Shown: positions 3,127-29,052, counted from the first letter of the stretch. The stretch is DNA of 64,000 nt from Chthoniobacterales bacterium (GCA_021463515.1 JAJTYZ010000114.1:263-64262), one strand, 5' to 3'. Numbers and translations: made by a program. The notes: generated by a model from the sequence alone, not told the origin.

Positions 3127-3132
3127 CCCACA

Positions 3133-3558
3133 CTACCAATTGCCGATATTCTTATCGTCCGTCGTCTGATTCGGCCCCAGCGACCAAAGGTCAAAACTCT
3201 CGGGATTATGCTTTCCTGGGCGGAGGTATTGATACTCACCGCCCCAAGGGTCGAGCAGGGCCTCCGCTTTCAACAACTTGGACCAATTACGAGGTTTTGG
3301 AGGCACTGTGGGAGGATCCACTAAAGCTTTAAGACCTTGTGCTGTCGTGGGAAAATTCAGATTTTGCATCTGGTAAACCTTCAATTGCGTCGAAAGGTTT
3401 TCGATATCGCTGCGCACTCGCGTGCTTTTAGCGACTTCCAGATTTCCCACGAGGTAGTAAATGCCGGCGGACATCAAAACGACGATAATCGAGAGCACGA
3501 GCATGATTTCGACGAGCGTGTACGCCGCCGCCTTATGGAGTTGAGATGATTTTTTCAT
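3133..3558 (-). CDS. gspG: Type II secretion major pseudopilin GspG
   Basis: AAYTLVEIMLVLSIIVVLMSAG... followed by LLDPWGGEYQYLRPG...FDLWSLGPN, which is typical of GspG. 141 aa. Confidence 0.85.
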   Translation of the reverse strand: MKKSSQLHKAAAYTLVEIMLVLSIIVVLMSAGIYYLVGNLEVAKSTRVRSDIENLSTQLKVYQMQNLNFPTTAQGLKALVDPPTVPPKPRNWSKLLKAEALLDPWGGEYQYLRPGKHNPESFDLWSLGPNQTTDDKNIGNW

Positions 3559-3583
3559 GGTATGTATGGATTCAATAAAAGCG

Positions 3584-6558: not shown

Positions 6559-6587
6559 TCCCTTCCGCGCTCAAAGCTACCGGGATA

Positions 6588-6617
6588 AGCGGTAGCTATC
6601 TACGTGATGAGCGGTCA
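6588..6617 (+). promoter_or_regulatory. Direct-repeat box A (AGCGGTAG-N10-GATGAGCGGTCA); candidate LytTR-type operator upstream of gspE
   Basis: Reads AGCGGTAGCTATCTACGTGATGAGCGGTCA on the + strand. The AGCGG half-sites start at 6588 and 6610, a 22-bp period. It overlaps the response-regulator stop codon (6615..6617). It lies 30 nt from the gspE ATG at 6558 and 57 nt from the ATG at 6531. The proximal half-site is also the right arm of an 8-bp inverted repeat (6575..6582 / 6590..6597). Confidence 0.55.
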
Positions 6618-7301
6618 ACTAAGAGCTTGCTTAAGACTTGGCCAATAACGGCGACTCACAAGAAGTGCTTTCCCGTTACCTAAAATCACTTCGCGGCGGC
6701 TCTCGGAAATCGCTCGAATTTCACGAATGGCAGCCAAGCGAATAATGGTGCTACGATGAATTTGCATAAATTCACAAGGCATCACTTCGAGCCATTCCTT
6801 GAGGGGACGAAGCATGAGCGTCGAAGTTCCATCTCCCAAAACTAATCGCGTATAATTTCCCTCCGATTCGATGGAATCCAGCAATGTCCACTCCACACGA
6901 CGCACGGCACCTCCGAGAAGTAAAAGCAAAGTTTGAGGCGGAACGTGAGCGGCATCCCCGTGGATGCGAGCAAGTGTGTTCGCAAGTCGAGCGGGCTCTA
7001 CGGGCTTAAGGAGATAATCAAGTGCATTAACCTCAAAGGCCCGAATGGCGTATTGATCATACGCGGTGACAAACACAATGGGCGGGAGAGGTTGTGGGGC
7101 TTGGGCTAAAAAATCAAATCCGCTTTCTCCACGCAGTTGGACATCCAAAAAAATAATATCCGGCACGCAACGCTGACACAAACGAACGGCTTCCTTGATA
7201 TTCGAGGCAGCATCTATGGTTCGCACTTCGGGATGCACTGACAACAAATGCCGCATTTCTTGCCGAGCGAGAGATTCGTCATCAATGATCAAACAGCGCA
7301 T
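6615..7301 (-). CDS. LytTR-family response regulator (REC + LytTR DNA-binding domain)
   Basis: MRCLIIDDESLARQEM...DIIFLDVQLRGESGFDFL...VFVTAYDQYAIRAFEVNALDYLLKP gives a canonical receiver domain. The C-terminal part (EGNYTRLVL...MQIHRSTIIRLAAIREI) is LytTR-like. It overlaps the kinase gene by 13 nt. Confidence 0.85.
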   Translation of the reverse strand: MRCLIIDDESLARQEMRHLLSVHPEVRTIDAASNIKEAVRLCQRCVPDIIFLDVQLRGESGFDFLAQAPQPLPPIVFVTAYDQYAIRAFEVNALDYLLKPVEPARLANTLARIHGDAAHVPPQTLLLLLGGAVRRVEWTLLDSIESEGNYTRLVLGDGTSTLMLRPLKEWLEVMPCEFMQIHRSTIIRLAAIREIRAISESRREVILGNGKALLVSRRYWPSLKQALS

Positions 7302-8824
7302 GTTGAATCATTGTAGGGAATCTCAATGAGGGCGCGAACCCAGTTTTGATCGATCTGAAACTTCAATGAGGCCTCTTTCCCGTACATGAGTTGAAGGCGA
7401 TGGCGGATATTGTCCACTCCGAGATGCCGTCGAGAAGGATCTGGCGTACGCCAGATACCGGTATTTGCCACCTCGATTTTCAAATGCTGTTTTTCGACAC
7501 GAACATCAATGTGAAGGTTCATAATCCCGCTATGGACGGCAAGGCTGTGAGTTATGGCATTTTCTATTAAAGGTTGCAGAAGAAAAATCGGTATTCGTTG
7601 TTCCTCCAATCCTTCAGCCACAGCAATGACAACTTTCAAATCCTCGGGAAAACGCTGTTGCTCGATCGCCAAATACTGCCGAGCCAAAGTCATCTCTTCC
7701 CCCACCGTCGAAAAATTATCCGCAGGATCGGACAGAGTTGCCCGCATGTAGCCTGCGAGTTCCGTAACCATTTTACGCGAGGTCTCATTTGAAGCAGGCA
7801 AGGTCGCCCGCAAAGAATTGAGAGCGTTAAAAAGAAAATGCGGATTCATTTGATACCGCAGAGCGTCCAATCGAGCACGCTCTTCTTTCAACGAGATAGC
7901 AAGTGCCCGAGCCTTAGCGTGGACGAAATAGCGTTGTGCTAATTGGCGTTCCGCAACGAGTGCGGCGACGAGGAGCCCCGTTGCTGCTAACACCCAACAA
8001 AAGGCCTGGGTAAACCAAATCGCCGCTGGAACATGTTCGGGCACCATGCGTGACGCATAAAAAACAAGTGCTGCATAAACAGAGCCCATCACCGCGGCTC
8101 CCGCTGCAGCAGCACCCTGCGGACCCAACTTGACAGCGACGAGAATGAAAACCGGAAACACCAAAAATACGAAATTTTTCCCCTGGTCTAAAAAGGCAGC
8201 ACCACACGTTAAAAATGTCATGGTACTCACCCCTGCCACCCAAAGAAGCAACTCTCCATAGACATTGGAAAACACGGAAGGTCTCCGAAGTAGGAGCAGT
8301 AAAAGCGGCGAAAGCAAAATGAGTGCCGTCCCATTGGAAAAACTCCAATTCCAGATTGCCATACCGAACTGACTGAAATCCATTTTTCGCTCTACGAACA
8401 ACCAAAACGGAACAACGATTGTCCCCGGAATCGGTGCTATAAAAGATGCTGCCATCAGGGCCAGCACGGAACGCGTATGATCAAATCCACGAGCTACGCG
8501 ACCTAATTTGCGAACGATCAAGTAGCCGACTAACGCCTCCAAAACATTCCCGGTTGCTCCCACAAATGAAAACACAAGAGGCTCACCAAAGACTAAGGCC
8601 ACGATCGGAGCGGACACCCAAATCCACGGGAAAAAGCGCCAACCCAACCAGAGCAATCCCACAAGATTGATAGCGGAAGCTGGCCAAAAAATGTGCTGCG
8701 CCCAAGCAGGCAAACTATACGGCCATAATTGATCCCCAAACCAAAAGGTAAAACATACCGTCCCCGCAGAAATCAGTCCAAAGCCCAGCCCCTGCACCCA
8801 TGGATGTTTCCAAAAAGAAATCAC
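7289..8824 (-). CDS. Sensor histidine kinase, LytS/YehU-type (MASE1-like membrane domain + His_kinase + HATPase)
   Basis: About 300 aa of polytopic Trp-rich N-terminal membrane domain resembling MASE1. This is followed by LRYQMNPHFLFNALNSL (a hallmark of the PF06580-type H-box) and an ATPase region (LLQPLIENAITHS). The only available start is GTG at 8824. Confidence 0.8.
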   Translation of the reverse strand: MISFWKHPWVQGLGFGLISAGTVCFTFWFGDQLWPYSLPAWAQHIFWPASAINLVGLLWLGWRFFPWIWVSAPIVALVFGEPLVFSFVGATGNVLEALVGYLIVRKLGRVARGFDHTRSVLALMAASFIAPIPGTIVVPFWLFVERKMDFSQFGMAIWNWSFSNGTALILLSPLLLLLLRRPSVFSNVYGELLLWVAGVSTMTFLTCGAAFLDQGKNFVFLVFPVFILVAVKLGPQGAAAAGAAVMGSVYAALVFYASRMVPEHVPAAIWFTQAFCWVLAATGLLVAALVAERQLAQRYFVHAKARALAISLKEERARLDALRYQMNPHFLFNALNSLRATLPASNETSRKMVTELAGYMRATLSDPADNFSTVGEEMTLARQYLAIEQQRFPEDLKVVIAVAEGLEEQRIPIFLLQPLIENAITHSLAVHSGIMNLHIDVRVEKQHLKIEVANTGIWRTPDPSRRHLGVDNIRHRLQLMYGKEASLKFQIDQNWVRALIEIPYNDSTCAV

Positions 8825-8986
8825 GGCTCACTCTTTTGATCTCCTCCACAGCATGGCAAGTTATTTCCTACGCGAAGACGCATAAGAAATGGATGCCGCA
8901 TTTTCCGTTCGTCCAATTTTGCCATGCCGTTCATCCCTGCCTCCTCGGACGCTGCGATGCAACCTGAGAGTAAGTCCCATTTCTCT

Positions 8987-11900
8987 ATGAAAATGAGGCA
9001 TTCATTCTTGTCGTTTTTTGCAGTGTTAACCTTGACCGTTTGCCCGCAACTTTTCGCGGAAGCTTTTCATGTGGATCGTTGCGGGGTGTGGGATGCGCGT
9101 TTTCCGGGCCATCGAGAAGCAGAGGATTTTGCCATCATGCAATTTCCCATGGTGCTGAGCAGTCGGCCCGATATGCGGCGAGTGGATGTATTTTTCGAAT
9201 ATCGCGGAGATTTGCCCATGAAACAATCGCAGGACGGGAAGCCTCCAGCGACGGCATCGCTCAATGGCAAGCCCATCCACGTAGATCTGCGCTTTGGAAA
9301 TTCCGGGGCGACGCAATGGGTGAGAGCAAAGTTAAAGCTTCCGGACAAAGACATGAAATACGCGGAAAAAGGGGCACCCAATGATCTCCGAATCAGCCTC
9401 CATGCCTCGGATGGCACGTCCTTTGAAAAGCAGATCATCATCCCGGGGCTTACCCTTTCCTCGATGGATCAGCGTATCCTCGATGGCAAAGCCGCCGATA
9501 TTAATAGCTTCAACTACGCGATGGCGGTTAAAATTCCGCCTAACAAACTCGAATTTTCCAAGGGCATTCCGAAAATCGGTAAAGTTGGATTTGGCTTTCA
9601 ATTAAACGGCAAGTTGACTTTTTACCCGTTCACGAAGAAAAAAATTAATGACACGTATGGTGGCGTAAATCTCATAGCCGGCGAGAAAAAGTACGCCATT
9701 AAGGTCGGCAGCAAAAGCTCTGCCACATGGAGAAAAGGGGAATGGGATTACGACGAATGGAAAGCCTATATGGCGTTTTCACAAACGATTGAAATTTGGC
9801 AGCTCTCCTTTTTCGGGACATTGCCGCCGGAGACCAAAAAAGTCATTGAAGCGATTCCCTTTGCCGGGCCGGATATCCGCAAAGGATTAGAAGGTTTTAA
9901 GGCTTCGTTGGAAGCCGAGCCAACTCTCACAGGTGCTGCCAGCCTCGGGTTAAAGCCGGAAGATCCTTTTATTAAAAACTGGACGCTCAATGGAGAAATG
10001 GATGTTCGGCTTTCCCTTAATATGGCACTGGAAATTACGGCTTTGGGAAAATTCGGCGCAAGAGCACTTTTGGGCGGGAAAATTGACTTGGGCGTTCAGT
10101 CCCCCGCGACCCCGACTTTTTATACCTGCAAAGGTCAAATCTATGTCGGTGCCGACCTTTACTTTGCCTGCTTCGAATCCAATTTCCGCTATGCGCTGCT
10201 GGAATTTAACCTCAGTGCCGCCCCAAAAAATATCTTGCCGCCTATCAACACTTCGAAATCCAACGAACTCACGGCACCGCTTTTTCAGATTATGAAAATC
10301 CCCGAGGAAGATGAATTTTTTCCGCTTCAAGGTCTCTCACAAAACTCCGTAGAGCACGTGAAGCCATCGCAAGAAATCACCGCATTGGCGAATCACTTCC
10401 GTCAAATATCCGCCCCCGCAATGCCTCAGGCAATGACCTTGCAATTAGGAAATGACCCCCATGACATCCAAATTAAAAGCTCTGCCACATTACCCATTGT
10501 CAATCATCTCTCGCCACTGGCATGGCCAAGCATGGCTGCCTCGCAGGATGCACAACTCGTAATTTTCGGCGTGGACACCCGTGAGTCGAATGTGAAGCCC
10601 CGCAATCCCGTGCAATTCAGCAAACTCCTGTGGACACTCTGCGATGCCAATGGGAATTGGTCCGCGCCGCAACCGATGCCTGCCGGGAATGACGCTGCCC
10701 AAATGATGGCTTCTGCCGCCTACAACAATGCAGATTCCTTTCTTGCTGTGTGGCAACAAATGCGTGACCCAAATTTTCAGGGAGAGGACCCAGGAAGCTG
10801 GATGAACCAAAATGAAATCGTCGCTGCAAAATTTGATCTGAAGGAAAAAACATGGACGCTGCAACCCATTTCCAAGTCCACTGCAGGTACCGGCGATTAT
10901 TCTCCGCAGATCGCCATGGGCGCAACCATGCAGGGCAAAGCCGTTCCCGCCCTCGCTGTCTGGCTCCATGGAAAAATTCCGCCTATCAGCGCGTCAGGCG
11001 AAACTTCCACCGAGCCTGCAAACGTAACTTTCCATTGGTCCCGCTACCACAACAGCATTTGGAGCACGCCGGATTTCTCGACGACCGATGGAAATATGCA
11101 GGCTCTCAAAGCACCCAAGGGACTCCTGGCGTTTGATCTCGCCGCCACGGAGAATGCCAATATTTTGGGTGGCGTACTCGTCTATTCCTTCGTCGCAGCC
11201 GACGGCACGACGAAACTTGCCTGCCGTTATTTCTACGAACAACTTCCTCACGATTCTCAGCAACAGTCCCACCCGCCCATTTGGGGGCCCGAAGTCATCA
11301 TTGCCGATCAAGGAATCAATCTCGATCCGATTGTCGAAATGCGCCAAGTGAACAGCGGCTTTATCGTGTGGAATCAAAATGGCAATCTCGTGAGCACAGA
11401 ATTTCGTCTCAGCACAAGCACGTCGAAATTTGACAAGCTAACGGTGATTCGAAAGGCCCCAACCGGCAGTGAGTTTTACAACATTCATGCCATCCCATTT
11501 AAAGTCGGCGAATGGTCGGGTGGCAAACTTAAGGACCAAGCGATCGCGTGGAATGAACAGACGGATGATGGCCCGAGTATTGTGCTTACGGTTTATGATG
11601 CATACACCAGCACATGGAGTGAGCCCTTCTCCCTCACACCCGGAGATGCCTTGGAATCACTTTATGATCTTAAGAGCGATCGAAATGGCAACCTCATGCC
11701 GCTCTATGTTCATACCGACTTGAGCTATGAGAACGTAAAGACTCAGGATGAAAATGGGAATGCCGTACAAGTCGAGAGCGCACCGGTTCCGGAAGCCGAA
11801 AGCCTACGCATCGGAAAATTCCGCCCTTTGCGAGCTGTTGGTTTTGCATCCAATGGATTATCCACCACCTCGGAGGAGTTTATGGGAGGCACCAAGGTTA

Positions 11901-12517
11901 ACCTAACGGCTTCTGTCTCAAATTATGGCATTCTCGGGGTTAAGCCGCTGACGGTACGTTTTTATCAGGGCAATCCCAAAACCGGCGGAAATGAAATCGG
12001 CAAAAAGGACACTCAGGTTCTCCCGGGAGGTGCCACCGCACAAGTGACAATCGAATGGGATTTACCTGAGGATATTTGGGAAAAAGATAATGCGGCCACC
12101 GAAATTTATGCTGTGTTAGATACCAACCATCCCAGTGCCGCAACGAAGATTATCGGAGACACCGCCAGCCTTTATTTGGAAGGAATCCGTCTCGATGCCA
12201 GCGTCGAAGCAAAAACCCTTTTAGCCGATGGCTCCTTTAGCGTGGAAGTTGGCATCCAAAATTCCGGCTTCCCCAACACGGGTTCCTTTCCCGTGGTCAT
12301 TTATGATTACGCAGGCATTCACGAAATCACACGCGGAATGATGCCACGTGTCGATGCCGGAGGCTTTGAACAAGTCACTCTCGAAATGCCTGCCGGAAGT
12401 GCAGGAACAGCACCCGAAGGAAAAGATTTTTTGGTGAAAATAGACCCTGAAAACACTCTCAAACTTTCCGGTAATCCGAAATTGGAGAAAAAGCTCCATG
12501 TAAAATCTAAGCCATGA
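8987..12517 (+). CDS. Large secreted protein of unknown function (about 1176 aa) with two C-terminal CARDB-like Ig-fold modules
   Basis: Trimmed to MKMRHSFLSFFAVLTLTVCPQLFAEAF, a signal-peptide-like N-terminus. C-terminal segments (VNLTASVSNYGILGVKPLTVRFYQGNP...ATAQVTIEWDLP, about 11.88-12.13 kb; SVEVGIQNSGFPNTGSFPVVIYD...FEQVTLEMP, about 12.22-12.47 kb) resemble CARDB domains. The rest is unrecognised. Confidence 0.75.
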   Translation: MKMRHSFLSFFAVLTLTVCPQLFAEAFHVDRCGVWDARFPGHREAEDFAIMQFPMVLSSRPDMRRVDVFFEYRGDLPMKQSQDGKPPATASLNGKPIHVDLRFGNSGATQWVRAKLKLPDKDMKYAEKGAPNDLRISLHASDGTSFEKQIIIPGLTLSSMDQRILDGKAADINSFNYAMAVKIPPNKLEFSKGIPKIGKVGFGFQLNGKLTFYPFTKKKINDTYGGVNLIAGEKKYAIKVGSKSSATWRKGEWDYDEWKAYMAFSQTIEIWQLSFFGTLPPETKKVIEAIPFAGPDIRKGLEGFKASLEAEPTLTGAASLGLKPEDPFIKNWTLNGEMDVRLSLNMALEITALGKFGARALLGGKIDLGVQSPATPTFYTCKGQIYVGADLYFACFESNFRYALLEFNLSAAPKNILPPINTSKSNELTAPLFQIMKIPEEDEFFPLQGLSQNSVEHVKPSQEITALANHFRQISAPAMPQAMTLQLGNDPHDIQIKSSATLPIVNHLSPLAWPSMAASQDAQLVIFGVDTRESNVKPRNPVQFSKLLWTLCDANGNWSAPQPMPAGNDAAQMMASAAYNNADSFLAVWQQMRDPNFQGEDPGSWMNQNEIVAAKFDLKEKTWTLQPISKSTAGTGDYSPQIAMGATMQGKAVPALAVWLHGKIPPISASGETSTEPANVTFHWSRYHNSIWSTPDFSTTDGNMQALKAPKGLLAFDLAATENANILGGVLVYSFVAADGTTKLACRYFYEQLPHDSQQQSHPPIWGPEVIIADQGINLDPIVEMRQVNSGFIVWNQNGNLVSTEFRLSTSTSKFDKLTVIRKAPTGSEFYNIHAIPFKVGEWSGGKLKDQAIAWNEQTDDGPSIVLTVYDAYTSTWSEPFSLTPGDALESLYDLKSDRNGNLMPLYVHTDLSYENVKTQDENGNAVQVESAPVPEAESLRIGKFRPLRAVGFASNGLSTTSEEFMGGTKVNLTASVSNYGILGVKPLTVRFYQGNPKTGGNEIGKKDTQVLPGGATAQVTIEWDLPEDIWEKDNAATEIYAVLDTNHPSAATKIIGDTASLYLEGIRLDASVEAKTLLADGSFSVEVGIQNSGFPNTGSFPVVIYDYAGIHEITRGMMPRVDAGGFEQVTLEMPAGSAGTAPEGKDFLVKIDPENTLKLSGNPKLEKKLHVKSKP

Positions 12518-12746: not shown

Positions 12747-15704
12747 TTAGTTCTCTGCTGCGGAGAAGGTGAATTTGTAGGTATCCGCAGGAAGCGGGCC
12801 CGAGCCGTCGGCTTTCATCACTCGATCGGTATTGAGCAGGAGTCGTCCGACATCTTGCCGACCCAGCCGCCAAATACGCAGCTTATCGCCATTCTTAGCA
12901 ACAACGGGAATCGTGCGTCCGTCTTTTACCACAGCCGTGACCGGCGTCCCCAAGAATGTTCCCAGCGCATCGTCGCCTTGCACGCGGTAAAATACCTTGG
13001 CCAAATCCTTGCCCGTGTCCACATAGACCACAGGCAAATTACTCCAGCGGCCTACCGTGGGACTCGGGCTATAAGTCCCCGTACCCGTGACAGGCTTCGT
13101 GCCTGTTTCAAGGTCGTAGAGATCAAAGCCGTCCTTCGATACATTCTTGATGGTGAATTTGCCATTGGCTTCCTTCACGCCGATCACTTGATCAATCAGC
13201 ACCTTCTCATTCTCCGCGAGGTGATGCGGCGCATCAGTCGTCACGTGAATGGGGGTGCCACTTTTAACGAACTTAATGGCACTTGGCAGCGTGTCTGTTT
13301 CATCTCCAGAGAACTTCGCATCGGCTGTTACCGGCCCATAAGGTGCTTGGATGGCCCACACGTTTTTATTCACCAACCCTTTTTCTCCGGCAACGGTGAG
13401 AATCAGGTTGTTGGCCCCACCCGCCCCAATATCGGCGGTGTCATCATCTACGGAGAAGCCATAGCCCGAGAAACCAAGTTCCACATGAACAAACCAGACG
13501 AAAGGATCGAGGTTAAAGACATTGTACGTCTGACCTCCCGTGGGCTCGGCGGGATCGGGATACCAGTGCAAATGCTTGCCTTTTGCATCCACAACATCGG
13601 GATATTTGGTGAAGTCGCTCACCCCGCGTAAAACGGATTTGATGAGATCACGAATCATCGCAATGGCCATCTGACCATCCACCGAATCTTTGGCGGGTTG
13701 ATCAAATATGTAGCCCATATTAGCACCAATAATGTCCTGCATGAATTTGCACTGGCTGTCGTTGTTTTTGTGCCCAATCTGATTCATGGAAGCCATGATG
13801 AGATAAACCGCTTGCGAAAATTCGTAAGGACGACGCCACTCATCTTCCTTCGCAAAATTGAATTTGAGGAGCGGATATCCGGGCTGCCCTGCTTTGGGAG
13901 TCCAAATCAATGGATTGTAAGTCGGTGGCTCAATGGTAAACTTTTGATTCAGCGCAGGATTTCTTGCCACTTGACTTAGAACAGCAGATTTCTTATCGCT
14001 GGCGACTTGGAGAATGACTGCCGCCCCTTGATGTGGCCCCGTTTCTGTCATCGCATCATCCAATCCAGGCCCCTTCACCGCCATCCCTGGTACCAAGCCG
14101 GGTACGGGCTGAGTAAAAGAAATCGTCGCAGAACGAACTTCCATCGAACCTTGAACCGTAATGGGCGCCGTGGGCGCATTGGGATTTTTATCCTTCCAAT
14201 GATCCAAATAATACTGCGCCCATGAATACCAAAGTCGCAGCATCGTATCCGCCGCATAATCATTAACCGGACGCGTAAAAACATACGTCGTCATATCGCT
14301 TGTGTTGGCGAGCGGCTTGCTCAAGGTGACGGTGTAAGCTTTTGGATCCTTAGAAATCACGGTCGTACCCTCTTGGATGGGATTGGGCTTGGGTTTTTCG
14401 GGTGCCGGGTTGGCCGTGACAATCATGCCCGGCTGAATAAAATCCATCTTCGCTTTTCCTTCCTGAGGGTTGAGGCTCAATACTGCATTTCCTTTGGGGC
14501 TTGTTGTCGCCGAGTTGCCCAAAGCCAAAAATTTGGCACCCGTTCCTCCGCTAGAAAGCATGAACTTTACCGTCGTCCAATCCCCCGCTTTCTCATAACT
14601 CCCCGGCGTTGCCTTGAGCGGACTTTGAGCAAAGATATTGGCGCCGGATGGAATTTTTATGGGCTGCTTCGCATCCCCCGAAGGATTAGGGATATTGTAA
14701 AAAGGCCACCCTTTCCCTCCAAAATACTGTCCCAATAACTTGTTGGGTTTCGTTTTATCACCCTCCGCCGTAAACTCACGAATTTTAGCTTGGAGAGATT
14801 CAATGTTGCCAATGGAACCCGTCCAGCCATTGGGTTCAGGCTGCGAACCCGGCGTCCAACGTCCATTTTTATTGGGATCGGGCATCGCTCCAGAAATCGG
14901 CGGGAGCACCCAAGCATCCGTCACCTCCATCGCCAATGGGAGATAAAGATTGTCCACATTCGACACATCATAATTAATCAATGTCACCAACTCGGTATCC
15001 GGAATTTGATCCTTCGTCTTAAGTTTAACCATGTATTCATGATCGCGGATCGTCCACTCCGCGAGTTGGTCTTCGGAATCATCATTGGGTGCCTCCGCCA
15101 AAGTATCCGTCGCCCGATACCACATCACCACACCATCTTTGCTCTGCGCCGGCGCAATGGCGCGGATGGAAGCCGGACGATATCGCAACGGATTGGGATC
15201 GGTCGTCGTTAGGTACGTGCCATCGGTGCCAATACCAATGCGTGCGCCATTCCAAAATACCAAAGGCAATGACACCGTGATGCTTTGCCCCGCCTTCAAT
15301 CCGAAATAACAAGTGTCACCTTCCTTGTACCCAATATAGCCACGGTATTCCTTATCCGTGGGATCGTAGGGATCATAGAGCCCTTCGGTGGAACCTTCCG
15401 CTGTTGTTTTAGAATTCGGATTACGCATGATCGGATACACCGTCTTGTCGGAATTATTTACGATCGTCAGCGTCTTGTTGGGAATCGTATTCCCCTGCGG
15501 GTCCTTTCCGTAAGTAAGGACTTTTCCCGTTAATGTCCCCGGCCCCGGATTGGGATCCCAAGGCTGCGGCTTACTTGGATCCGTCACTCCCGTGGTGCCG
15601 GTAGGCATCGGGATTTTCTCCTCCGCTCTCGCAGGTGAAAAAAACAAGGACGTGCTGGCTGCAAGCACAGCACCCATGAGCAGGCGATGACGTTTTGCTT
15701 TCAT
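12747..15704 (-). CDS. Large secreted protein of unknown function (about 985 aa)
   Basis: The track ORF starts at TTG 15725. I trimmed it to the ATG at 15704, giving MKAKRHRLLMGAVLAASTSLFFSPARA|EE, a good signal peptide. Pro/Thr/Gly-rich beta-type sequence. A C-terminal stretch (IHVTTDAPHHLAENEKVLIDQVIGVKEANGKFTIKNVSKDGFDLYD) resembles small E1-FCCH-like beta-barrel modules seen in phage and surface proteins (low confidence). Confidence 0.75.
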   Translation of the reverse strand: MKAKRHRLLMGAVLAASTSLFFSPARAEEKIPMPTGTTGVTDPSKPQPWDPNPGPGTLTGKVLTYGKDPQGNTIPNKTLTIVNNSDKTVYPIMRNPNSKTTAEGSTEGLYDPYDPTDKEYRGYIGYKEGDTCYFGLKAGQSITVSLPLVFWNGARIGIGTDGTYLTTTDPNPLRYRPASIRAIAPAQSKDGVVMWYRATDTLAEAPNDDSEDQLAEWTIRDHEYMVKLKTKDQIPDTELVTLINYDVSNVDNLYLPLAMEVTDAWVLPPISGAMPDPNKNGRWTPGSQPEPNGWTGSIGNIESLQAKIREFTAEGDKTKPNKLLGQYFGGKGWPFYNIPNPSGDAKQPIKIPSGANIFAQSPLKATPGSYEKAGDWTTVKFMLSSGGTGAKFLALGNSATTSPKGNAVLSLNPQEGKAKMDFIQPGMIVTANPAPEKPKPNPIQEGTTVISKDPKAYTVTLSKPLANTSDMTTYVFTRPVNDYAADTMLRLWYSWAQYYLDHWKDKNPNAPTAPITVQGSMEVRSATISFTQPVPGLVPGMAVKGPGLDDAMTETGPHQGAAVILQVASDKKSAVLSQVARNPALNQKFTIEPPTYNPLIWTPKAGQPGYPLLKFNFAKEDEWRRPYEFSQAVYLIMASMNQIGHKNNDSQCKFMQDIIGANMGYIFDQPAKDSVDGQMAIAMIRDLIKSVLRGVSDFTKYPDVVDAKGKHLHWYPDPAEPTGGQTYNVFNLDPFVWFVHVELGFSGYGFSVDDDTADIGAGGANNLILTVAGEKGLVNKNVWAIQAPYGPVTADAKFSGDETDTLPSAIKFVKSGTPIHVTTDAPHHLAENEKVLIDQVIGVKEANGKFTIKNVSKDGFDLYDLETGTKPVTGTGTYSPSPTVGRWSNLPVVYVDTGKDLAKVFYRVQGDDALGTFLGTPVTAVVKDGRTIPVVAKNGDKLRIWRLGRQDVGRLLLNTDRVMKADGSGPLPADTYKFTFSAAEN

Positions 15705-15765
15705 AAATAATTTCGAGGCCGTCAAAATTCCACGGCTTTTCCAAAAGAAAAATCACTTCGTGATT

Positions 15766-15795
15766 AGCGGCAGTTAAGAGCGGGATGAGCGGTCA
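15766..15795 (+). promoter_or_regulatory. Direct-repeat box B (AGCGGCAG-N10-GATGAGCGGTCA); candidate LytTR-type operator
   Basis: Reads AGCGGCAGTTAAGAGCGGGATGAGCGGTCA. Half-sites at 15766 and 15788 (22-bp period). It lies 62 nt upstream of the ATG (15704) of the 985-aa secreted protein gene, in the same relative orientation as box A to gspE. It is 196 nt from the divergent regulator gene. Confidence 0.55.
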
Positions 15796-15990: not shown

Positions 15991-16866
15991 GTGATGTTTT
16001 TCTTCGGAGACTTCAATGCGATCAGACATTTCATGCGTTTGAATCACCCAAGTTGTAAGCGTTATAGAAGGGAGTCCGCCGAAGGAAAAAAAGATCCGGT
16101 GTCCTCCTCCCCTTCCACGTCGCCCCAAAGCCAGCTTCCTTTCCGCGCTGTGTTGCTTGATGACAATCCAAATGATCGCGATCACGTGCGTGCCATGCTG
16201 CGACGCCATCCTTCGATCCAACTTGCCGGTGAAGCAACCACGTTGAAGCAGGCTCTCGAAATGATAAGTCAGAAACGAATTGATGTTATGTTCCTCGAGA
16301 GCGAAATCAAAGGACGCTTTATCCTCGAAGAATGCCCCCTGATTCCTGCTGCCGTGAAATTAATTTTCCTCACCAACCACCAAATGGCCGCCGTGCGTGC
16401 CTTTGAATTGGAAGCTCTGGACTTTCTTCTCAAACCCCTGTCGTCCTCTCGCCTCAACGAAACCATACGTCGCCTTCTTCGCATTGATTGGCAACGAACA
16501 TCAACGCCACCCCTTTTGAAAACGGACAACAACGCGTCGGCACTTATCCCCTTTGAACGCGGACGTCGCGGTGCCTCACTCAGCGAAATTTCCCTCATTC
16601 AAGCATTCGGCAATTACACTCGCGTCACCTTCGACAAAGGTAAAAGCGAAATCGTTTTGCGCTCACTTGCAAAATGGGAGCAGTTGTTGCCCATGCCTCC
16701 CTTTCTTCGCGTGCATCGCAATGCCGTCGTCCACACAAACAAGGTTCGTGCTCTCGATGACATCAATGGCTGCAGTGTTCTGCGCTTAGACAACAATGAG
16801 GAAACCATCCCCGTAAGTCGCCGCTGTTTGCCGGAAGTTCGCCAAGCTCTTTTTGCCCAGCACTAA
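15991..16866 (+). CDS. Atypical LytTR-family response regulator (phospho-acceptor Asp replaced by Glu)
   Basis: The receiver domain aligns with the neighbouring regulator: RAVLLDDNPNDR...RIDVMFLESEIKG (against DIIFLDVQLRG)...LIFLTNHQMAAVRAFELEALDFLLKP. The C-terminal part is LytTR-like (FGNYTRVTF...LRVHRNAVVHTNKV). The start is uncertain: GTG 15991, ATG 15994 or ATG 16033. Confidence 0.75.
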   Translation: MMFFFGDFNAIRHFMRLNHPSCKRYRRESAEGKKDPVSSSPSTSPQSQLPFRAVLLDDNPNDRDHVRAMLRRHPSIQLAGEATTLKQALEMISQKRIDVMFLESEIKGRFILEECPLIPAAVKLIFLTNHQMAAVRAFELEALDFLLKPLSSSRLNETIRRLLRIDWQRTSTPPLLKTDNNASALIPFERGRRGASLSEISLIQAFGNYTRVTFDKGKSEIVLRSLAKWEQLLPMPPFLRVHRNAVVHTNKVRALDDINGCSVLRLDNNEETIPVSRRCLPEVRQALFAQH

Positions 16867-16868
16867 TT

Positions 16869-16898
16869 TAACCGCTCATCCAATCTGCGACTACCGCT
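16869..16898 (-). promoter_or_regulatory. Direct-repeat box C (AGCGGTAG-N10-GATGAGCGGTTA, on the minus strand); candidate LytTR-type operator upstream of the NHLP precursor
   Basis: The minus strand reads AGCGGTAGTCGCAGATTGGATGAGCGGTTA. It starts 3 nt after the regulator stop (16866). The AGCGGTAG half lies proximal to, and 60 nt upstream of, the precursor ATG at 16958. Confidence 0.55.
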
Positions 16899-16957
16899 TG
16901 TCCCCTTTGCGTCGCCTTCCGCGTCGGAGGCTCTCATGCTCCCGTTGTGTCCGTGTC

Positions 16958-17272
16958 ATGAACACCCACAATCCGCCCAACTTTTCTGAAATGACGCGTC
17001 GAGAAATCGAAGATTATCTTATCGAATTAGCGATGGTGAATCCTCTGTTTCGCGAACAACTTCTTGCCGAACCCACACGCGTTCTACGTGATCTCGGCCT
17101 TCCCGTAGGCGACAATGTGCATATCTGCGTTCTCGAAGAAGAACCGCAGTCCTTTTACCTCGTGCTGCCACGTGTACTGGAAGACCGAGAAAACGCCCAA
17201 GACTCCTGCGCCTCTACGTATCCCGCGAACAACACCACCGATATGTTTCGCTTTTTTCATGGCTACGCATAA
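16958..17272 (+). CDS. NHLP (nitrile-hydratase leader peptide) family RiPP precursor, 104 aa
   Basis: MNTHNPPNFSEMTRREIEDYLIELAMVNPLFREQLLAEPTRVLRDLGLPVGDNVHICVLEEEPQSFYLVLPRV matches the NHLP leader pattern (xxLExxLIxxAxxxxxFRxxLLxxPxxxL...G..LP....V.V.EE....YLVLP). This is followed by a 31-aa tail, LEDRENAQDSCASTYPANNTTDMFRFFHGYA. The track ORF starts at TTG 16853, which would run through box C; I prefer ATG 16958, with ATG 16991 as an alternative. Confidence 0.75.
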   Translation: MNTHNPPNFSEMTRREIEDYLIELAMVNPLFREQLLAEPTRVLRDLGLPVGDNVHICVLEEEPQSFYLVLPRVLEDRENAQDSCASTYPANNTTDMFRFFHGYA

Positions 17273-17290
17273 ATCGAGGGAATCAAAAAC

Positions 17291-18550
17291 TCACCGACGC
17301 ATTTTGAAATCTGCCATGATTTCAGCGGGTGCGTGCCCCATTTGGAGAAGCTCCCCCATGCGGCGCATCGCGGGTGCCGTATGATTGAAAAAACGTTTGT
17401 AAGCACGGCAAAGATAATTCAGCCCCGCTTCTCCATCCGGCGTGCGAATAAAACGATGCTTCGGACACTCACCATGACATAAAGAACGCACCTCACATTC
17501 TCGACAATAACGCGGCAGGGTGTCGGCTTTGTCATTGCCAAATTTTTGCTGGAACTCCGAATTTACCATCGCGCCCAGTGTATGATTCAAAATATTTCCG
17601 AGCTTGAAATTCGGGTACACGTAATGATCGCACGAATACACATCGCCATTGTGCTCCATCGCCAAAGCCGTCCCGCATTTTTCCTCAAAATAGCAAAGTC
17701 CGCCCCCCACCCCCATCGTATTCCCCAGCGTCACATCGAAAATTTGCACAAATGTCCGCCCCACATCGCGCTTAATCCATTCGTCAAAAATCGTGCAAAG
17801 AAACTCCCCATATTGTTTTGGTTCCACACTCCAATCGGTCACGGGCATTCGCGCCGTGCCTTCCTCATCCGCTCGCGGCGGCATCGCCAAATCCAGTCCT
17901 AACTTTTTCGCCTCTGCATCCGGCAAACGCTCGACGAGCGGAATAAATTGAATAAACCCCGATCCCGTGTCCCGCAGAAATCGGTAAACTTCCAACGGCT
18001 TGAAGGAATTGATCCGATTCACCACCGTGAGCGTGTTAAAGGCCACGTGATGTTTTTTAAGAATCCGCAATCCCGTGATCACCTGCTCATACGACCCTCC
18101 CCCTTTTTTATCCACGCGATAGGCATCATGCAAACGAGGCGGCCCATCGAGGCTCAGACCCACGAGAAATTGATGCTCCGCAAAAAACGTCGCCCATTCC
18201 TCATTCAACAATGTGCCATTGGTTTGAAACGCATTGAAAATGGTTTTGCCGTGAGCATATTTTTTCTGCAAAGCCACGACCTTTCGAAAAAAATTAACGC
18301 CCAGCAATGTCGGCTCCCCTCCCTGCCACGCAAAACTCACCTCTGGCACATCCTGCTGCTCTATGTATTGACGGATATACGCCTCAAGCACCTCATCAGT
18401 CATTTTGAAATTCTCATTCGAGGGAAACAGCCGCTCCTTTTCCAAATAAAAGCAATACTTACAATCCAGATTACAAAGCGGCCCAATAGGCTTCGTCATC
18501 ACATGAAACGCGCGCCCCGCCGACGACGTATGAAAAGTGGATGCTGTCAT
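17291..18550 (-). CDS. Radical SAM/SPASM enzyme of the anaerobic sulfatase-maturase (anSME/AslB) family
   Basis: FHVMTKPIGPLCNLDCKYCFYLEKE (CxxxCxxC plus the AslB-type context), GGEPTL, and a C-terminal Cys-rich SPASM region (CYFEEKCG...CDHY...CRECEVRSLCHGECPKHR). Trimmed to the ATG at 18550 (the track start at 18559 is GTG). Confidence 0.85.
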   Translation of the reverse strand: MTASTFHTSSAGRAFHVMTKPIGPLCNLDCKYCFYLEKERLFPSNENFKMTDEVLEAYIRQYIEQQDVPEVSFAWQGGEPTLLGVNFFRKVVALQKKYAHGKTIFNAFQTNGTLLNEEWATFFAEHQFLVGLSLDGPPRLHDAYRVDKKGGGSYEQVITGLRILKKHHVAFNTLTVVNRINSFKPLEVYRFLRDTGSGFIQFIPLVERLPDAEAKKLGLDLAMPPRADEEGTARMPVTDWSVEPKQYGEFLCTIFDEWIKRDVGRTFVQIFDVTLGNTMGVGGGLCYFEEKCGTALAMEHNGDVYSCDHYVYPNFKLGNILNHTLGAMVNSEFQQKFGNDKADTLPRYCRECEVRSLCHGECPKHRFIRTPDGEAGLNYLCRAYKRFFNHTAPAMRRMGELLQMGHAPAEIMADFKMRR

Positions 18551-18777
18551 GTTGCCCACAGCATACTCAATAGCTCTTGGTTGAACGAGGCGGCTTTATT
18601 CTTGGAGGGAAATCGGGATGTAGGCTCCTCCGGAAATTGTCTTTGGGTACCGCACCCATCTCGAGTGCTGTTTCCCGCGCCCTGAATGAGCGCGATATTG
18701 ATGCGCTCCATGGGAAGACACCTGACACGCCCTGAACTTGGCCTTTAAAAGCTCCTGACGAACTATCGGCGTTCGAT

Positions 18778-25449: not shown

Positions 25450-28400
25450 ATGTCCGTTTCGGAAAATCCATCGTCGTCGTCCGGTTTCTCACGTCGACTC
25501 GAAGGTATCTTGCGAAATTTTTACCGAGCACGTCACGCGGGGGAGTCGTTGTTTCGGCGCGTTCTGCGGCGTCCGCGCACTGTGGCAGAAGCTCCGAATT
25601 TGCTGCCCTTACTCATTAAAGTTCTCGCCGGTTTTGCCCGTGTGGATGGAGAATTGCTCGAGGATGAAATTGACTCCAGCCTCGGCTTTTTACGCTACGA
25701 TTACCCCGAAGCGGTTTATTCGGAGCTGCGCACGCTTTTTCGTCAGGCCTTGCAGGAAAAGCCGGACCTTTCCGCGATGGCTCGCGAACTGCGCGGGCGA
25801 CTGAGTGAAGACCGCAAAATCCTTCTCGGCATCCAGCTCTACGATTTGGTGCATCGTGCCGGCATGAACAAGGACAACATGGCTGCCTATTACTCGTTCA
25901 TGGAACAGCTGGGTACGGCGTCGCAAGCCATTGATATCGTCTATCAACTCAACAGCGATGCCTTACCTCCGGAGAGTGAATTTTACGAAGCAAATGCCAG
26001 CCCGCTGGAGGCCATTATCTTTGGCTCAGGCAAGAATGTGGATGTGCCTATGCGAGAATTATCCGGCGACAATCGCCTCGCCACTTATCGTCATGGTGAG
26101 CTGATCCTCGTCAAAAATCTCTGCGATCATCCTGTCTCCGTGCAAGGCCGCGCCCTGCGTCCGGGAGAGTTTTCTCGCGTTTACCCCGGGCAGCGCATCG
26201 TCGTGGATGAGCATGTACTCACCTACCAAGACCTCGTTTACTATTTCAACGCCAAGAAAAATGTCTCTGTCGCCCACATTTTCGTCACAGTTACGGACAA
26301 AAACGAAATCCTGTTGGAAAAAAGTCAAACACGGGATAGTTCTCTCGAAGTTCGTTTTGGACTCAAAATTCTCGTCGTCGCCCTCAAAGATGTCCCCGCA
26401 ACTCTCAATGGTCACCGCCTCATCAAGGGAGAAAAAATTGAAGCAGTACTCGAAGATAAAATCATTTTCGATAATGACACCGAACTTTCTTTAAGTGACC
26501 TCCGTCGTCAGGCGCGTTCCTATGGTGGACGCTTTCACCTCAAGCAATCCAAGACGACCTATCTCGTATCTAATAATCCCGCGCTGCTCGATGAGGATGA
26601 CATTCTCCTCGCTCCGGGTGCAGGGAGTGAAATTTTGCTGAGTATTTTCTGCGATTTTGAGCGGCTTGTCGGGCGCTTAGAAGTTCTCAAAGCCGACCAC
26701 CCCGTACTCATTGGCGAAACTCCCATACGGAATGAATCCCCACTGCACGACGGAGACCTCATCCAAATTGACAGCACCCAAGCCCTGCGGTGCAATTTTT
26801 CCGAACGTTTGCTGGAAGAAGAGCGCAATGTCATTCATCACCTCGACGTTCGTGATCTCATTTGCCGATTTAACAATGGCAGCTTCGGTGTGGATGGTGT
26901 GAGTTTTTCCGCCACACGCGGAGAAATGATTTGCGTGATGGGTGCGAGCGGCTCAGGAAAAAGCAGCTTACTTCGTGCTATTGCCGGACAATTCCCCCCC
27001 GTGCGTGGCGAGGTTTTGTTCAATGGCAGTCCGCTCTATGGCAATTTCGAGGCCCTCAAACAATATGTCACTTACATTCCACAATTTGACGCCTTTGACG
27101 AACATCTCACCATTCGTGAGAACCTCAATTTCGCGGCAGCCATTCGCTCCCCTTACCTCTCCCGCCGCGAGCGTGGGCGACGGATTGATGGGAAACTCGC
27201 AGAACTTGGGCTTAACGAACGCCGCGACAGCGTCGTGGGTGCGACCCATCGCAAAACGTTGAGCGGTGGCGAACGGAAACGCCTCAATATCGGGCTAGAT
27301 ATGATTAGCTCTGCGGACATTTACCTTTTCGACGAGCCAACCTCCGGACTGTCCTCGAAGGATTCGGAGCACGTCATGGAAATCATCCGCGCCATGGCCC
27401 ACAACAAAATCGTCGTCGTTACCATCCATCAACCAAGTTCCAAAATTTTCCAAATGTTCAACAAAGCCATCCTGCTGGATCGAGGCGGGCGGATGGTGTT
27501 TTTCGGAACACCCACGGAAATGCTTTCTTACTTTGCCGAAGCGGAGCATCAGCAGCATTTCGGAACGCCCTTGGGAGGCTGTCCGTCCTGCGGAACCACA
27601 CGCCCGGAGTTTGTTTTTGATGTTTTGGAAACACCGCTGCGTGATTTGAGCGGCGATGTGATTTACGAAGAAAACGACCGTGGTCAACTTGTTCCTGTGC
27701 GTCGTTATTCGCCGGATTATTGGCGCGATAAATACGAAGTGTGGCGGCTTATGCGCGATGTTCGACAACCCGCCGCCGAGGCATCCCCGCCGGATACGGA
27801 GGCAGCATTGTCGGAATCTCGCTGGTCGTGGCGCGGATTTTTACACCGCGAACTTCTTCAATTTCGCACACTCCTCGCACGTTCTTTTATCAGCAAACTT
27901 CGAAATCGCGGCAATCTACTCACCACGCTCGTAGAAGCACCGCTCCTCGCCGCTCTCATTGGTGCCGTGCTGCGTTATTCCGAATCGGGGCATTACGATT
28001 TCGCCTCTTCTTTTCACATACCTACGTACCTCTTTCTCGCGCTCGTTGTCGCCATGTTTCTCGGACTTACCAATAGCGTGGATGACATCATTCGTGATCG
28101 CCCGGTGCTACAGCGCGAGCGCAATCTTAATGTTCGTCTAGGCTATTATATTTTGGCAAAAGTTCTCACCCTTTCCTTATTTGCCGTCATCCAAAGCGTA
28201 CTCTTCATCGTTATCGGCAATTACATTCTCGAAGTGCGAGGGATGTTTTGGATTTACCTCGTGGCAATGGGACTTACGGCCATCAGCGGGATTGCGATTG
28301 GACTCCTCATTTCCAGTCTCGTTCACGAGGGAAAAACAGCAGTCAATATCATCCCCATTGTACTCATCCCGCAGATCATTCTCGGCGGTGCTTTAATCAA

Positions 28401-29052
28401 ATATGAGGAGATGAATAAGAACCTCGATTTCGTTTATTCCGTAAGTCGCTGGTTTTCGCAAAATCCCGATGCAGGCGTTCCGCGCAGTGATCTGCAAGTG
28501 CCACTCATTTGCGAATTCATGCCCATGCGCTGGTCTTACGAAGCACTCGTTTTTGCTCAGGCAAAATTGAATCCGCTCACCGGTCGCCAAGAGGCCATTC
28601 AACGGCAAATCAATCAGCTGGCCCGCATCACGCACCTCACGGAATCAGAGCAACAGCGTCTCGATGATCTCAAGGAACTTCTTGCGGCACTCTCGGGTTT
28701 ACATGGTTACGACACACGGCAAATTTCCACGCGTTTGCGCGAAATTGACCGCGTCATCTATGGCGAATCTCCACCACCTGAACTTCTCGAACCTTCCGAA
28801 GGCGACATCAGCGCAGAACGATTGTTTGTTAATCAGAAAACCACGGACCTGGTGAATAAGGCAGAAATGGAGCAAAGCGATTATCGCGAAAGCCAATTTC
28901 TCAATGTGTTTTTTGGGCCAGAAAAACGCTATTTCGGTATCCAGTCGAGCATCCTAACTTTCAACACATGGGTGCTCATTGTCTCGTCGCTCCTCACCTT
29001 CCAAGTCCTCTACTTCGTCTTGCGTCATCAATTAAAACGTCAACTTGCATGA
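25450..29052 (+). CDS. Multidomain ABC transporter (TerB-like N-domain + three degenerate FHA-like beta-sandwich modules + ABCG-type ATPase + ABC-2 permease)
   Basis: Walker A GASGSGKSSLL, signature LSGGERKRLNIG, Walker B IYLFDEPTSGLS, H-loop TIHQP. C-terminal TM bundle with a coiled-coil insert (about 28.5-28.9 kb). The N-terminus LLIKVLAGFARVDGELLEDEIDSSLGFL resembles TerB/DjlA-N-type domains. The FHA-like call is weak (L..GD.I.I patterns only). Confidence 0.8.
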   Translation: MSVSENPSSSSGFSRRLEGILRNFYRARHAGESLFRRVLRRPRTVAEAPNLLPLLIKVLAGFARVDGELLEDEIDSSLGFLRYDYPEAVYSELRTLFRQALQEKPDLSAMARELRGRLSEDRKILLGIQLYDLVHRAGMNKDNMAAYYSFMEQLGTASQAIDIVYQLNSDALPPESEFYEANASPLEAIIFGSGKNVDVPMRELSGDNRLATYRHGELILVKNLCDHPVSVQGRALRPGEFSRVYPGQRIVVDEHVLTYQDLVYYFNAKKNVSVAHIFVTVTDKNEILLEKSQTRDSSLEVRFGLKILVVALKDVPATLNGHRLIKGEKIEAVLEDKIIFDNDTELSLSDLRRQARSYGGRFHLKQSKTTYLVSNNPALLDEDDILLAPGAGSEILLSIFCDFERLVGRLEVLKADHPVLIGETPIRNESPLHDGDLIQIDSTQALRCNFSERLLEEERNVIHHLDVRDLICRFNNGSFGVDGVSFSATRGEMICVMGASGSGKSSLLRAIAGQFPPVRGEVLFNGSPLYGNFEALKQYVTYIPQFDAFDEHLTIRENLNFAAAIRSPYLSRRERGRRIDGKLAELGLNERRDSVVGATHRKTLSGGERKRLNIGLDMISSADIYLFDEPTSGLSSKDSEHVMEIIRAMAHNKIVVVTIHQPSSKIFQMFNKAILLDRGGRMVFFGTPTEMLSYFAEAEHQQHFGTPLGGCPSCGTTRPEFVFDVLETPLRDLSGDVIYEENDRGQLVPVRRYSPDYWRDKYEVWRLMRDVRQPAAEASPPDTEAALSESRWSWRGFLHRELLQFRTLLARSFISKLRNRGNLLTTLVEAPLLAALIGAVLRYSESGHYDFASSFHIPTYLFLALVVAMFLGLTNSVDDIIRDRPVLQRERNLNVRLGYYILAKVLTLSLFAVIQSVLFIVIGNYILEVRGMFWIYLVAMGLTAISGIAIGLLISSLVHEGKTAVNIIPIVLIPQIILGGALIKYEEMNKNLDFVYSVSRWFSQNPDAGVPRSDLQVPLICEFMPMRWSYEALVFAQAKLNPLTGRQEAIQRQINQLARITHLTESEQQRLDDLKELLAALSGLHGYDTRQISTRLREIDRVIYGESPPPELLEPSEGDISAERLFVNQKTTDLVNKAEMEQSDYRESQFLNVFFGPEKRYFGIQSSILTFNTWVLIVSSLLTFQVLYFVLRHQLKRQLA

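Follow-up and report, generated by a model that had tools for sequence, protein, structure and literature searches.

The stretch of DNA treated here, called the window below, comprises 64,000 nucleotides (nt) of a Chthoniobacterales bacterium (GCA_021463515.1 JAJTYZ010000114.1:263-64262). The gene of interest encodes a peptide of 104 amino acids (aa) whose leader is of the nitrile-hydratase-leader-peptide (NHLP) type. It is preceded by the gene of a LytTR response regulator, designated RR2, and converges with the gene of a radical S-adenosylmethionine (SAM)/SPASM enzyme, designated rSAM. A preliminary description of the locus had offered two views of this arrangement. Peptide and enzyme could be unrelated neighbours, the latter being a housekeeping sulfatase maturase, or both could form an unusual minimal pair for a peptide that is synthesized by ribosomes and modified post-translationally (RiPP). 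It had also remarked that a pheromone role would fit. The features at the centre of the locus are the following:

16958..17272, + strand: peptide gene, NHLP-type, 104 aa (translation; TIGR03793; homolog alignment)
15991..16866, + strand: RR2, atypical LytTR response regulator (Pfam Response_reg and LytTR)
17291..18559, - strand: radical SAM/SPASM enzyme, assigned as an anaerobic sulfatase maturase (TIGR03942, NF010308, anSMEcpe 4K36)
16872..16903, + strand: LytTR-type operator of the peptide gene (0 mismatches to the consensus; ends 54 nt before the ATG)

As the preliminary description had it, translation yields a 104-aa open reading frame (ORF) with an NHLP-pattern leader, and its C-terminus, ...LEDRENAQDSCASTYPANNTTDMFRFFHGYA, contains one Cys, neither Gly-Gly nor Gly-Ala, and no C/S-x-P/A-x-R motif. 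RR2, with its Response_reg and LytTR domains, lies directly 5' of the peptide gene, and 91 nt separate the RR2 stop codon from the peptide ATG; the start proposed for RR2 by the gene caller is 14 codons later than the ORF start. On the other side, 18 nt lie between the peptide stop (17272) and the convergent rSAM ORF (17291) on the opposite strand, and a consensus scan found no terminator between both genes. The statement that no cyclodehydratase, lanthionine synthetase or C39 exporter is adjacent can be extended to the whole 64 kb, in which tblastn and Pfam searches detected no LanM, cyclodehydratase, C39 exporter or Nif11 gene. A short upstream ORF of 17 codons (MLPLCPCHEHPQSAQLF, 16936..16989) overlaps the peptide start codon in another frame and begins 5 nt past a GGAGG; a GGAGG about 30-35 nt 5' of the peptide start codon is seen again in several relatives.

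Residues 13-75 of the peptide match TIGR03793 with 48.7 bits (E 5e-13), which is just short of the curated cut-off (50.9); of the 77 profile positions, 1-63 are covered by the match. It ends early and falls short of the cut-off because the end of the leader has been lost from this peptide. The closest homolog bearing a Gly-Gly, which is 64% identical and is encoded at a locus numbered L020, reaches 74.5 bits over positions 1-77. This homolog passes the full profile and the family is therefore an NHLP family; the NHLP homology of the window peptide can be regarded as secure despite its sub-cut-off score. In the search of family models proposed in the preliminary description, the enzyme scores above the cut-off of TIGR03942 and the peptide below that of TIGR03793.

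Homologs of the peptide form 32 clusters of 95-134 aa (mostly 103-106), all aligned over their full length, and a protein identical to the window peptide is found on 22 public contigs, which indicates that the ORF is no chance frame. The best non-self homolog is approximately 64% identical. By sequence comparison the family is small; a profile search against 1.84 billion representatives returned 5 clusters at E <= 1e-30 and then the general NHLP background (3381 hits at E <= 0.001). No names for the family members were found in the source records.

The NHLP domain of the family is strongly conserved (MTRREIEDYLIER...LGLPVG...EEEPKSFYLVLPRVL). The leader end is acidic and has a double-glycine pattern, as in EEASDADLDEVAGG, and in 29 of the 32 clusters Gly-Gly closes a leader end of the form D/E-L-D/E-x-Φ-x-G-G. 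The core is composed of 11-15 residues, with a variable first half and a conserved end (ΦFxGYx) that reads MFRFFxGY[A/T/S/H] in the closest clade and DLFxGYΦ, QFFRGYV, HRFFKGYR or SFFLGYL elsewhere. For instance, the predicted post-Gly-Gly peptide of L020 is TGSSNDMFRFFRGYA. Nearly all family members are devoid of Cys in the core, and the window tail alone has gained one. Two distant members (L039, 6128..6451, and L040, 8579..8902) keep the order regulator-peptide-exporter, and their cores end in ...RWP; this different core end suggests the existence of subfamilies with distinct mature peptides. Another protein, P0156 (406 aa), contains four tandem NHLP-like domains followed by a Gly-Gly site and a Gly/Tyr-rich tail (GGLYGGLYGGYGG...), an unusual architecture with several leaders in one protein.

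Within this family the window copy appears as the exception, the relatives having a Gly-Gly site and C39 exporters. Its leader domain (approximately residues 9-72) and its C-terminal motif, MFRFFHGYA, are conserved. Compared with the family consensus, it agrees at 50 of 64 positions in the NHLP domain and at 7 of 8 in the C-terminal motif, and at only 3 of 15 in the leader end. A two-residue deletion is present, 'AN' stands where the homologs have 'GG', and no Gly occurs between residues 52 and 102; when the window leader end was read by eye in three frames, no Gly-Gly was seen in the other frames either. By this comparison, only the cleavage region has been lost from the window peptide. In an AlphaFold (AF2) model, residues ~9-72 are folded into three helices and a hairpin (predicted local distance difference test, pLDDT, 73-89) and residues 74-104 are disordered, so the predicted structure agrees with a leader that is folded and a cleavage region and core that are flexible. 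The DNA of the peptide gene is identical across four contigs of the window's species, which makes within-species polymorphism uninformative on selection.

The genomic surroundings of the family were compared in 34 independent peptide loci taken from genome and metagenome collections. All the loci that carry a taxonomic name belong to Verrucomicrobiota, namely Terrimicrobiaceae, Chthoniobacterales/Chthoniobacteraceae and 'Verrucomicrobiae', and four further contigs of the window's species show the same gene order as the window. Some of the loci are short, and two (L010 and L011) are long-read contigs of metagenome-assembled genomes (MAGs) in which the regulator, peptide and exporter genes are frameshifted, probably by assembly errors rather than as pseudogenes.

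RR2 is located directly 5' of the peptide gene in about 22 of the 29 loci in which that region is readable, and in the close clade its orthologs share 58-72% identity. Flanking the cassette in at least 14 loci are genes for an HlyD adaptor and for two ABC proteins, the first of which is a C39-peptidase transporter, and several of the exporter-bearing loci also possess an outer-membrane factor. In L004, for instance, HlyD passes TIGR03794, and the C39-ABC and the second ABC protein have TIGR03796 and TIGR03797 as their best matches, under the cut-offs. The clade of 44-50% identity has, together with the cassette, a lanthipeptide synthetase of class II (TIGR03897, 654.6 bits) and Nif11-leader precursors in tandem. 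However, the peptide gene stays beside the regulator also where neither exporter nor LanM is nearby (L001, L003, L023, L027 and the window), and no tailoring enzyme or immunity-like gene travels with it in these loci.

Homologs of p992, a 992-aa signal-peptide protein of the window, are 54-61% identical to it and adjoin the cassette in L004, L005, L006 and L018. In L004, L005 and L018 the genes for HlyD, the C39 ABC transporter and the second ABC protein lie between p992 and RR2, whereas the window has only a 265-bp spacer at this position. The simplest history for this arrangement would be that the exporter was lost in the window lineage and that the double-glycine region decayed afterwards.

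The peptide genes share an upstream element, CCGYTYRTCC-N12-CCGYTYRTCC, which is formed by two 10-bp direct repeats placed 12 bp apart. In the window it reads CCGCTCATCC-N12-CCGCTTGTCC (16872..16903). The geometry of this box is that of the published rule for LytTR operators, i.e. two 9-11-nt repeats with an 11-13-nt spacer (PMC4847170), and the half-site core CCGCTYA is also found within the published oligonucleotide bound by YehT/BtsR (GCCGCTCA, ACCGCTTA). At <= 3 mismatches the window contains four boxes where 0.29 would be expected; in 100 shuffles the count never came to four. All four are located within 6.5-17 kb, each facing the next gene: the operon of a type II secretion system (T2SS), the gene of the large secreted protein p1197, that of p992, and the peptide gene. 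These may be what the preliminary description called 'box C'.

A wider count at <= 2 mismatches, which covered the 34 loci and the window (413 kb), gave 59 boxes. Twenty-two precede a peptide gene, always at 41-55 nt from the start codon, and the others precede Nif11 precursors (27), p992 (4), T2SSE (2) and p1197 (1). The gene that follows is faced by 56 of the 59 boxes; for the other 3, the 400 bp downstream contain no recognised gene. Boxes before p992 homologs are present in L004, L006 and L018 as well, and T2SSE of L018 is preceded by a box placed as in the window. In most relatives a -10-like hexamer, located by eye, lies about 28-33 nt 3' of the box, a spacing that places the box at roughly -72 to -41. 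Judged from the genes that it precedes, the operator, presumably bound by one of the LytTR regulators, defines a regulon to which lanthipeptide precursor genes, genes for large secreted proteins and a type II secretion operon belong. The invariant cassette is that of regulator and peptide, with the other boxed genes varying by clade.

The arrays of lanthipeptide precursors can be very long. In L008 (1..14400; also L031 and L034) about 16 tandem precursors with Nif11 leaders lie beside LanM; those of L008 have leader ends of the type ...VAGG and cores rich in Cys, Ser and Thr. Nine of them have their own LytTR box at approximately 100-120 nt 5', and the others may be co-transcribed.

The remaining boxes of the window, the genes next to them, and the candidate sensor with its regulator are located as follows:

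15761..15792, - strand: LytTR-type box toward p992 (2 mismatches)
12747..15725, - strand: p992, 992-aa signal-peptide protein, likely regulon member (homologs beside the cassette)
8905..8936, + strand: LytTR-type box before p1197 (0 mismatches)
8924..12517, + strand: p1197, large secreted protein, likely regulon member (box upstream)
7289..8824, - strand: histidine kinase, MASE1 and PF06580 His_kinase, candidate sensor (Pfam domains)
6615..7301, - strand: RR1, canonical LytTR response regulator (D12, D13, D57 and K109 present)
6583..6614, - strand: LytTR-type box toward the type II secretion operon (1 mismatch; T2SSE start at 6558)
704..6558, - strand: type II secretion/pilus-like operon (T2SSE, T2SSF, pseudopilin, T2SSK), likely regulon member (Pfam)

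The annotated start of p1197 overlaps its own box, and the true start is probably M22 or M24 (8987 or 8993), which lie before the signal peptide. Pfam and PDB gave no identity for p992 and p1197 beyond a weak CARDB-like stretch. In the 1200-aa product of 25450..29052, farther away in the window, a TerB-like domain at the N-terminus is fused to an ABC ATPase and an ABC-2 permease; this protein is no C39 exporter.

With respect to the regulators, BtsR is the best NCBIfam match of both RR1 and RR2, with 91 and 159 bits against an equivalog cut-off of 246. In RR2 a Glu replaces the phospho-acceptor Asp (D57E, 'MFLESEI'), both in the window and in the 13 other close orthologs (14/14); distant orthologs keep the Asp, and the acidic Asp-Asp pocket is absent from them. 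For the D53E variant of YpdB, which acts as a phosphomimetic, constitutive activity and higher promoter binding are reported (PMC4847170), and by analogy with this variant RR2 is probably independent of phosphorylation. The gene order in L001 is kinase-RR1-RR2-peptide, and the window kinase is 49% identical to the L001 kinase. In L026 and L030 a MASE1 kinase is located directly 3' of the peptide gene. The kinase and RR1 of the window (6615..8824, - strand) are about 8 kb away from the peptide gene.

The radical SAM enzyme scores 515.5 bits against TIGR03942 (cut-off 349.45) and 499.1 bits against NF010308 (cut-off 484). It stays under the cut-offs of all the models for RiPP maturases, such as DynA (216.8/450), DarW (167.3/650) and DarE (149.5/650), with lower values for the rest. 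It aligns over its full length (residues 20-400) with anSMEcpe 4K36 (E 1.4e-58), an anaerobic sulfatase-maturing enzyme (anSME). Identical residues are aligned at the CxxxCxxC motif, at the SPASM Cys positions of both auxiliary 4Fe-4S clusters and at the Cys-Asp pair, and nothing in the window enzyme is notably different from anSMEcpe (PDB 4K36-4K39), AtsB or ChuR. Homologs number about 8000 at E <= 1e-50. At 73-85% identity the enzyme has more than 120 clusters, and NCBI gives several of these the name 'anaerobic sulfatase maturase' (Chthoniobacterales and Terrimicrobiaceae MAGs).

Orthologs that are 78-82% identical to the window enzyme adjoin UvrB (L043), a gene with an FGE-sulfatase domain (L044/L045) and ribonucleotide reductase (L046), and no NHLP gene lies beside them in these three contexts. 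In L044 (9314..10384) and L045 (2421..3491) an 81%-identical anSME ortholog is placed directly 5' of the FGE-sulfatase-domain gene, so that maturation genes of the anaerobic and the aerobic type are adjacent there. A tblastn search with the window rSAM found it in none of the 34 independent peptide loci, 17 of which, counted from coordinates, reach at least 1.3 kb 3' of the peptide gene, the place of rSAM in the window. A scan for CxxxCxxC in all frames of >= 200 aa of the peptide loci gave one match only. It lies in L001, at residue 308 of a frame of 351 aa that overlaps larger ORFs on the opposite strand and is probably no gene. The box scan of the window showed no LytTR-type box before rSAM.

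Genes for anSMEs commonly occur without a sulfatase gene nearby. A signature regex and Pfam searches of large ORFs revealed no sulfatase gene in the window, which neither supports nor weakens the assignment. Taking models and contexts together, rSAM is to be considered a stand-alone housekeeping anaerobic sulfatase maturase without evolutionary link to the peptide, and both genes are very probably unrelated neighbours. The first of the two views in the preliminary description is favoured by the anSME models that were passed, by the NHLP-free contexts of the orthologs and by the count of 0/34 in the peptide loci. The minimal RiPP pair is not supported, as the comparison of the 34 peptide loci and the three ortholog contexts shows no co-occurrence of rSAM and NHLP genes.

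The explanation that we favour, with a probability of about 0.5, is that the peptide is an autoinducer-like exported signal of the LytTR regulon, of which the window would carry a divergent copy without a cleavage site. In the relatives, the leader of ~90 aa would be cut after Gly-Gly by the adjacent NHLP-type C39 peptidase/ABC exporter, together with which the second ABC protein, the HlyD adaptor and the outer-membrane factor would work. Cleavage would free a peptide of 11-15 residues ending in ΦFxGYx. This peptide would feed back through the MASE1/LytS-type kinase and the LytTR regulators, as in ComCDE and PlnABCD, and its gene would be transcribed from a promoter bearing the LytTR-type operator. 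The window copy may be a variant that does without cleavage, or else a remnant, now decaying, of such a circuit.

Different observations point to this role. Since the peptide gene shares the box of the regulon, autoinduction is possible, and the presence of the same operator before Nif11, secreted-protein and T2SS genes makes an autoinducer-like role the most likely one. A signal rather than a product is suggested because the peptide gene is single-copy and always beside the regulator, the other boxed genes varying by clade, and because its core is short, conserved and nearly Cys-free amid hypervariable lanthipeptide cores and LanM clusters. The kinase adjoining the peptide in L001, L026 and L030 argues for the same reading. 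The peptides of the relatives are, presumably, exported, cleaved at Gly-Gly and employed in signaling. The remark on a pheromone role in the preliminary description gains strength from the conserved adjacency of regulator and peptide and from the LytTR-type box at a fixed distance before the peptide gene.

However, several points weigh against the autoinducer. Signaling is argued by analogy. The window copy has neither Gly-Gly nor the double-glycine leader consensus and, within 64 kb, no C39 exporter, and this makes export of the window copy doubtful. The folded leader, predicted to comprise ~64 residues, far exceeds what a C39 peptidase needs and hints at another partner. The Glu of RR2 may make any signal unnecessary and misfits a simple relay from kinase to RR2, and the kinase is near the peptide in four lineages only. 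The -10-like element of the window, compared by eye, is weaker than those of the relatives, and a σ70 consensus scan found no site upstream of the window peptide gene.

Among the alternatives, the one that survives best, although it is somewhat unlikely, is that the peptide is a regulated product, i.e. a short linear NHLP-type bacteriocin or microcin, or a secreted effector, which is induced through LytTR and exported with the lanthipeptides. The leader type and the exporter trio are indeed those of 'NHLP bacteriocin systems' (TIGR03793/4/6/7), the peptide gene carries the box of the Nif11 lanthipeptide precursors, and the phosphomimetic Glu of RR2 could make the cassette independent of any signal. 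However, its unmodified core of 11-15 aa keeps a conserved C-terminus and differs in this from the adjacent cores, which are hypervariable, no immunity-like gene accompanies the peptide, and the link to the regulator holds in the five loci, the window among them, that have neither exporter nor LanM.

It is unlikely that the protein of ~100 aa remains uncleaved, at least in the lineages without Gly-Gly, and acts inside the cell as an NHase-alpha-like partner of RR2, either as co-activator or as anti-activator. Such a role would account for the folded leader and the C-terminal motif being kept in the window copy and in L026/L030, which have no Gly-Gly. RR2 is not phosphorylatable at the usual site and would need some other control, and the adjacency of RR2 and peptide is the most conserved feature of the locus. 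Against this stand the canonical double-glycine leader end in 29/32 clusters and the C39 exporters that lie beside the cassette in at least 14 loci.

A further alternative concerns the window copy only and overlaps in part with the other readings. According to it, the window peptide gene is a decaying, functionless remnant that persisted after the loss of the exporter trio between p992 and RR2 and the drift of the cleavage region. The trio of HlyD, C39 ABC and ABC in L004, L005 and L018, where the window has 265 bp, is in line with this history, as are the confinement of the drift to the leader end (3/15) and the weak -10-like element. Nevertheless, the intact reading frame, the closeness to the consensus of the NHLP domain (50/64) and of the C-terminal motif (7/8), the perfect box and the identical protein on 22 contigs make a functionless gene quite unlikely.

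Modification of the Cys/Ser/Thr tail by the anSME-like enzyme (thioether, formylglycine, or a cyclophane on FRFFHGY) is hardly credible: the 18-nt gap recurs in four samples, the window tail is unique in its acquired Cys, and DynA and DarE, which form cyclophanes and ethers and are the next-best model matches, have the anSMEs as their nearest relatives, but those four recurrences belong to one species and are not independent, the genes are convergent and so not co-transcribed, rSAM has no box, is found in 0/34 independent peptide loci and has 78-82% identical orthologs in unrelated contexts, the anSME equivalog cut-offs are passed and every RiPP maturase cut-off is failed, and the tail has no C/S-x-P/A-x-R motif.

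The autoinducer reading can be compared with several known systems. The NHLP precursors and the exporters that belong to them are known families, as is the connection of these with LanM clusters, and anSMEs are well characterised. The NHLP bacteriocin system (TIGR03793 with TIGR03794/03796/03797) has a homologous leader, and close homologs of the window peptide pass its full model. The relatives share with it the double-glycine leader end, the adjacent genes for HlyD, C39-ABC and a second ABC protein, and the co-occurrence with LanM and Nif11-type precursors. However, the core of the present family is short, nearly Cys-free and conserved, and is no hypervariable substrate for modification. The family has no tailoring enzyme and is tied to a LytTR regulator and its operator; the window copy, in turn, is without the Gly-Gly region and scores 48.7 bits against the 50.9 demanded by the model.

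ComC/ComDE, PlnA/PlnBCD, BlpC/BlpRH and SppIP/SppKR are three-component peptide-pheromone systems of Gram-positive bacteria that control bacteriocins or competence. As in the ComCDE/PlnABCD type, the relatives combine a double-glycine precursor with a C39 ABC exporter (absent at the window locus), the peptide gene lies beside a LytTR regulator, with two regulators in L001 as in plnCD, and direct repeats spaced by 12 bp precede the peptide and the bacteriocin-type genes. The differences are also clear. The verrucomicrobium is diderm and therefore needs an HlyD adaptor and an outer-membrane factor. The leader is a folded NHLP domain of ~90 aa instead of 15-25 aa, and the kinase is composed of MASE1 and PF06580 (LytS type) instead of HPK10. 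The adjacent regulator has a Glu at the phospho-acceptor position.

The systems BtsS/BtsR (YehU/YehT) and YpdA/YpdB resemble the present one in that BtsR is the best match of RR1 and RR2, the kinase is of the PF06580 type and the half-site core is CCGCTYA; the natural Glu of RR2 has its parallel in the constitutively active D53E of YpdB. However, they sense pyruvate and regulate transporters, not genes for peptides, lanthipeptides or secretion. RR1 and RR2 score far under the equivalog cut-offs, and the sensor of the window has a MASE1 domain. The RaxX/RaxB/RaxH-RaxR system of Xanthomonas is a Gram-negative case of a double-glycine peptide with a C39 ABC exporter and a two-component link. Its peptide, RaxX, differs by a short leader and by tyrosine sulfation, its regulator belongs to a type other than LytTR, and RaxX has no sequence relationship to the window peptide family.

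In the literature, no description was found of a cassette formed by an NHLP-type peptide and an atypical LytTR regulator, which is weak evidence given the limited coverage of subscription journals. Within the same limited coverage, neither the operator consensus nor its position before Nif11 lanthipeptide precursors of Verrucomicrobiota was found described. A wider interpretation can be put forward tentatively, and we hold it to be possible. Soil Verrucomicrobiota (Chthoniobacterales, Terrimicrobiaceae) may possess quorum sensing of the Gram-positive-bacteriocin type, with an NHLP double-glycine autoinducer of 11-15 aa ending in ΦFxGYx. LytTR regulators and the operator CCGYTYRTCC-N12-CCGYTYRTCC would switch on prochlorosin-like lanthipeptides, giant secreted proteins and the T2SS; the window species would have been rewired, without double-glycine cleavage.

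The pairing of peptide and rSAM is ordinary, and there is no new RiPP class to pursue in it. Peptide autoinducers that have a double-glycine leader, together with LytTR regulons, are characteristic of Firmicutes; if diderm soil Verrucomicrobiota have a conserved counterpart, the logic of these Firmicutes systems would reach a new phylum and a new leader type. The operator precedes almost every Nif11 precursor in these clusters and provides a testable handle on the timing of expression of the lanthipeptide arrays. The biological role of prochlorosin-like lanthipeptides is still described as unknown (PMC10783134). With an operator consensus defined and mature peptides predicted to be short, induction and reporter experiments are easy to design.

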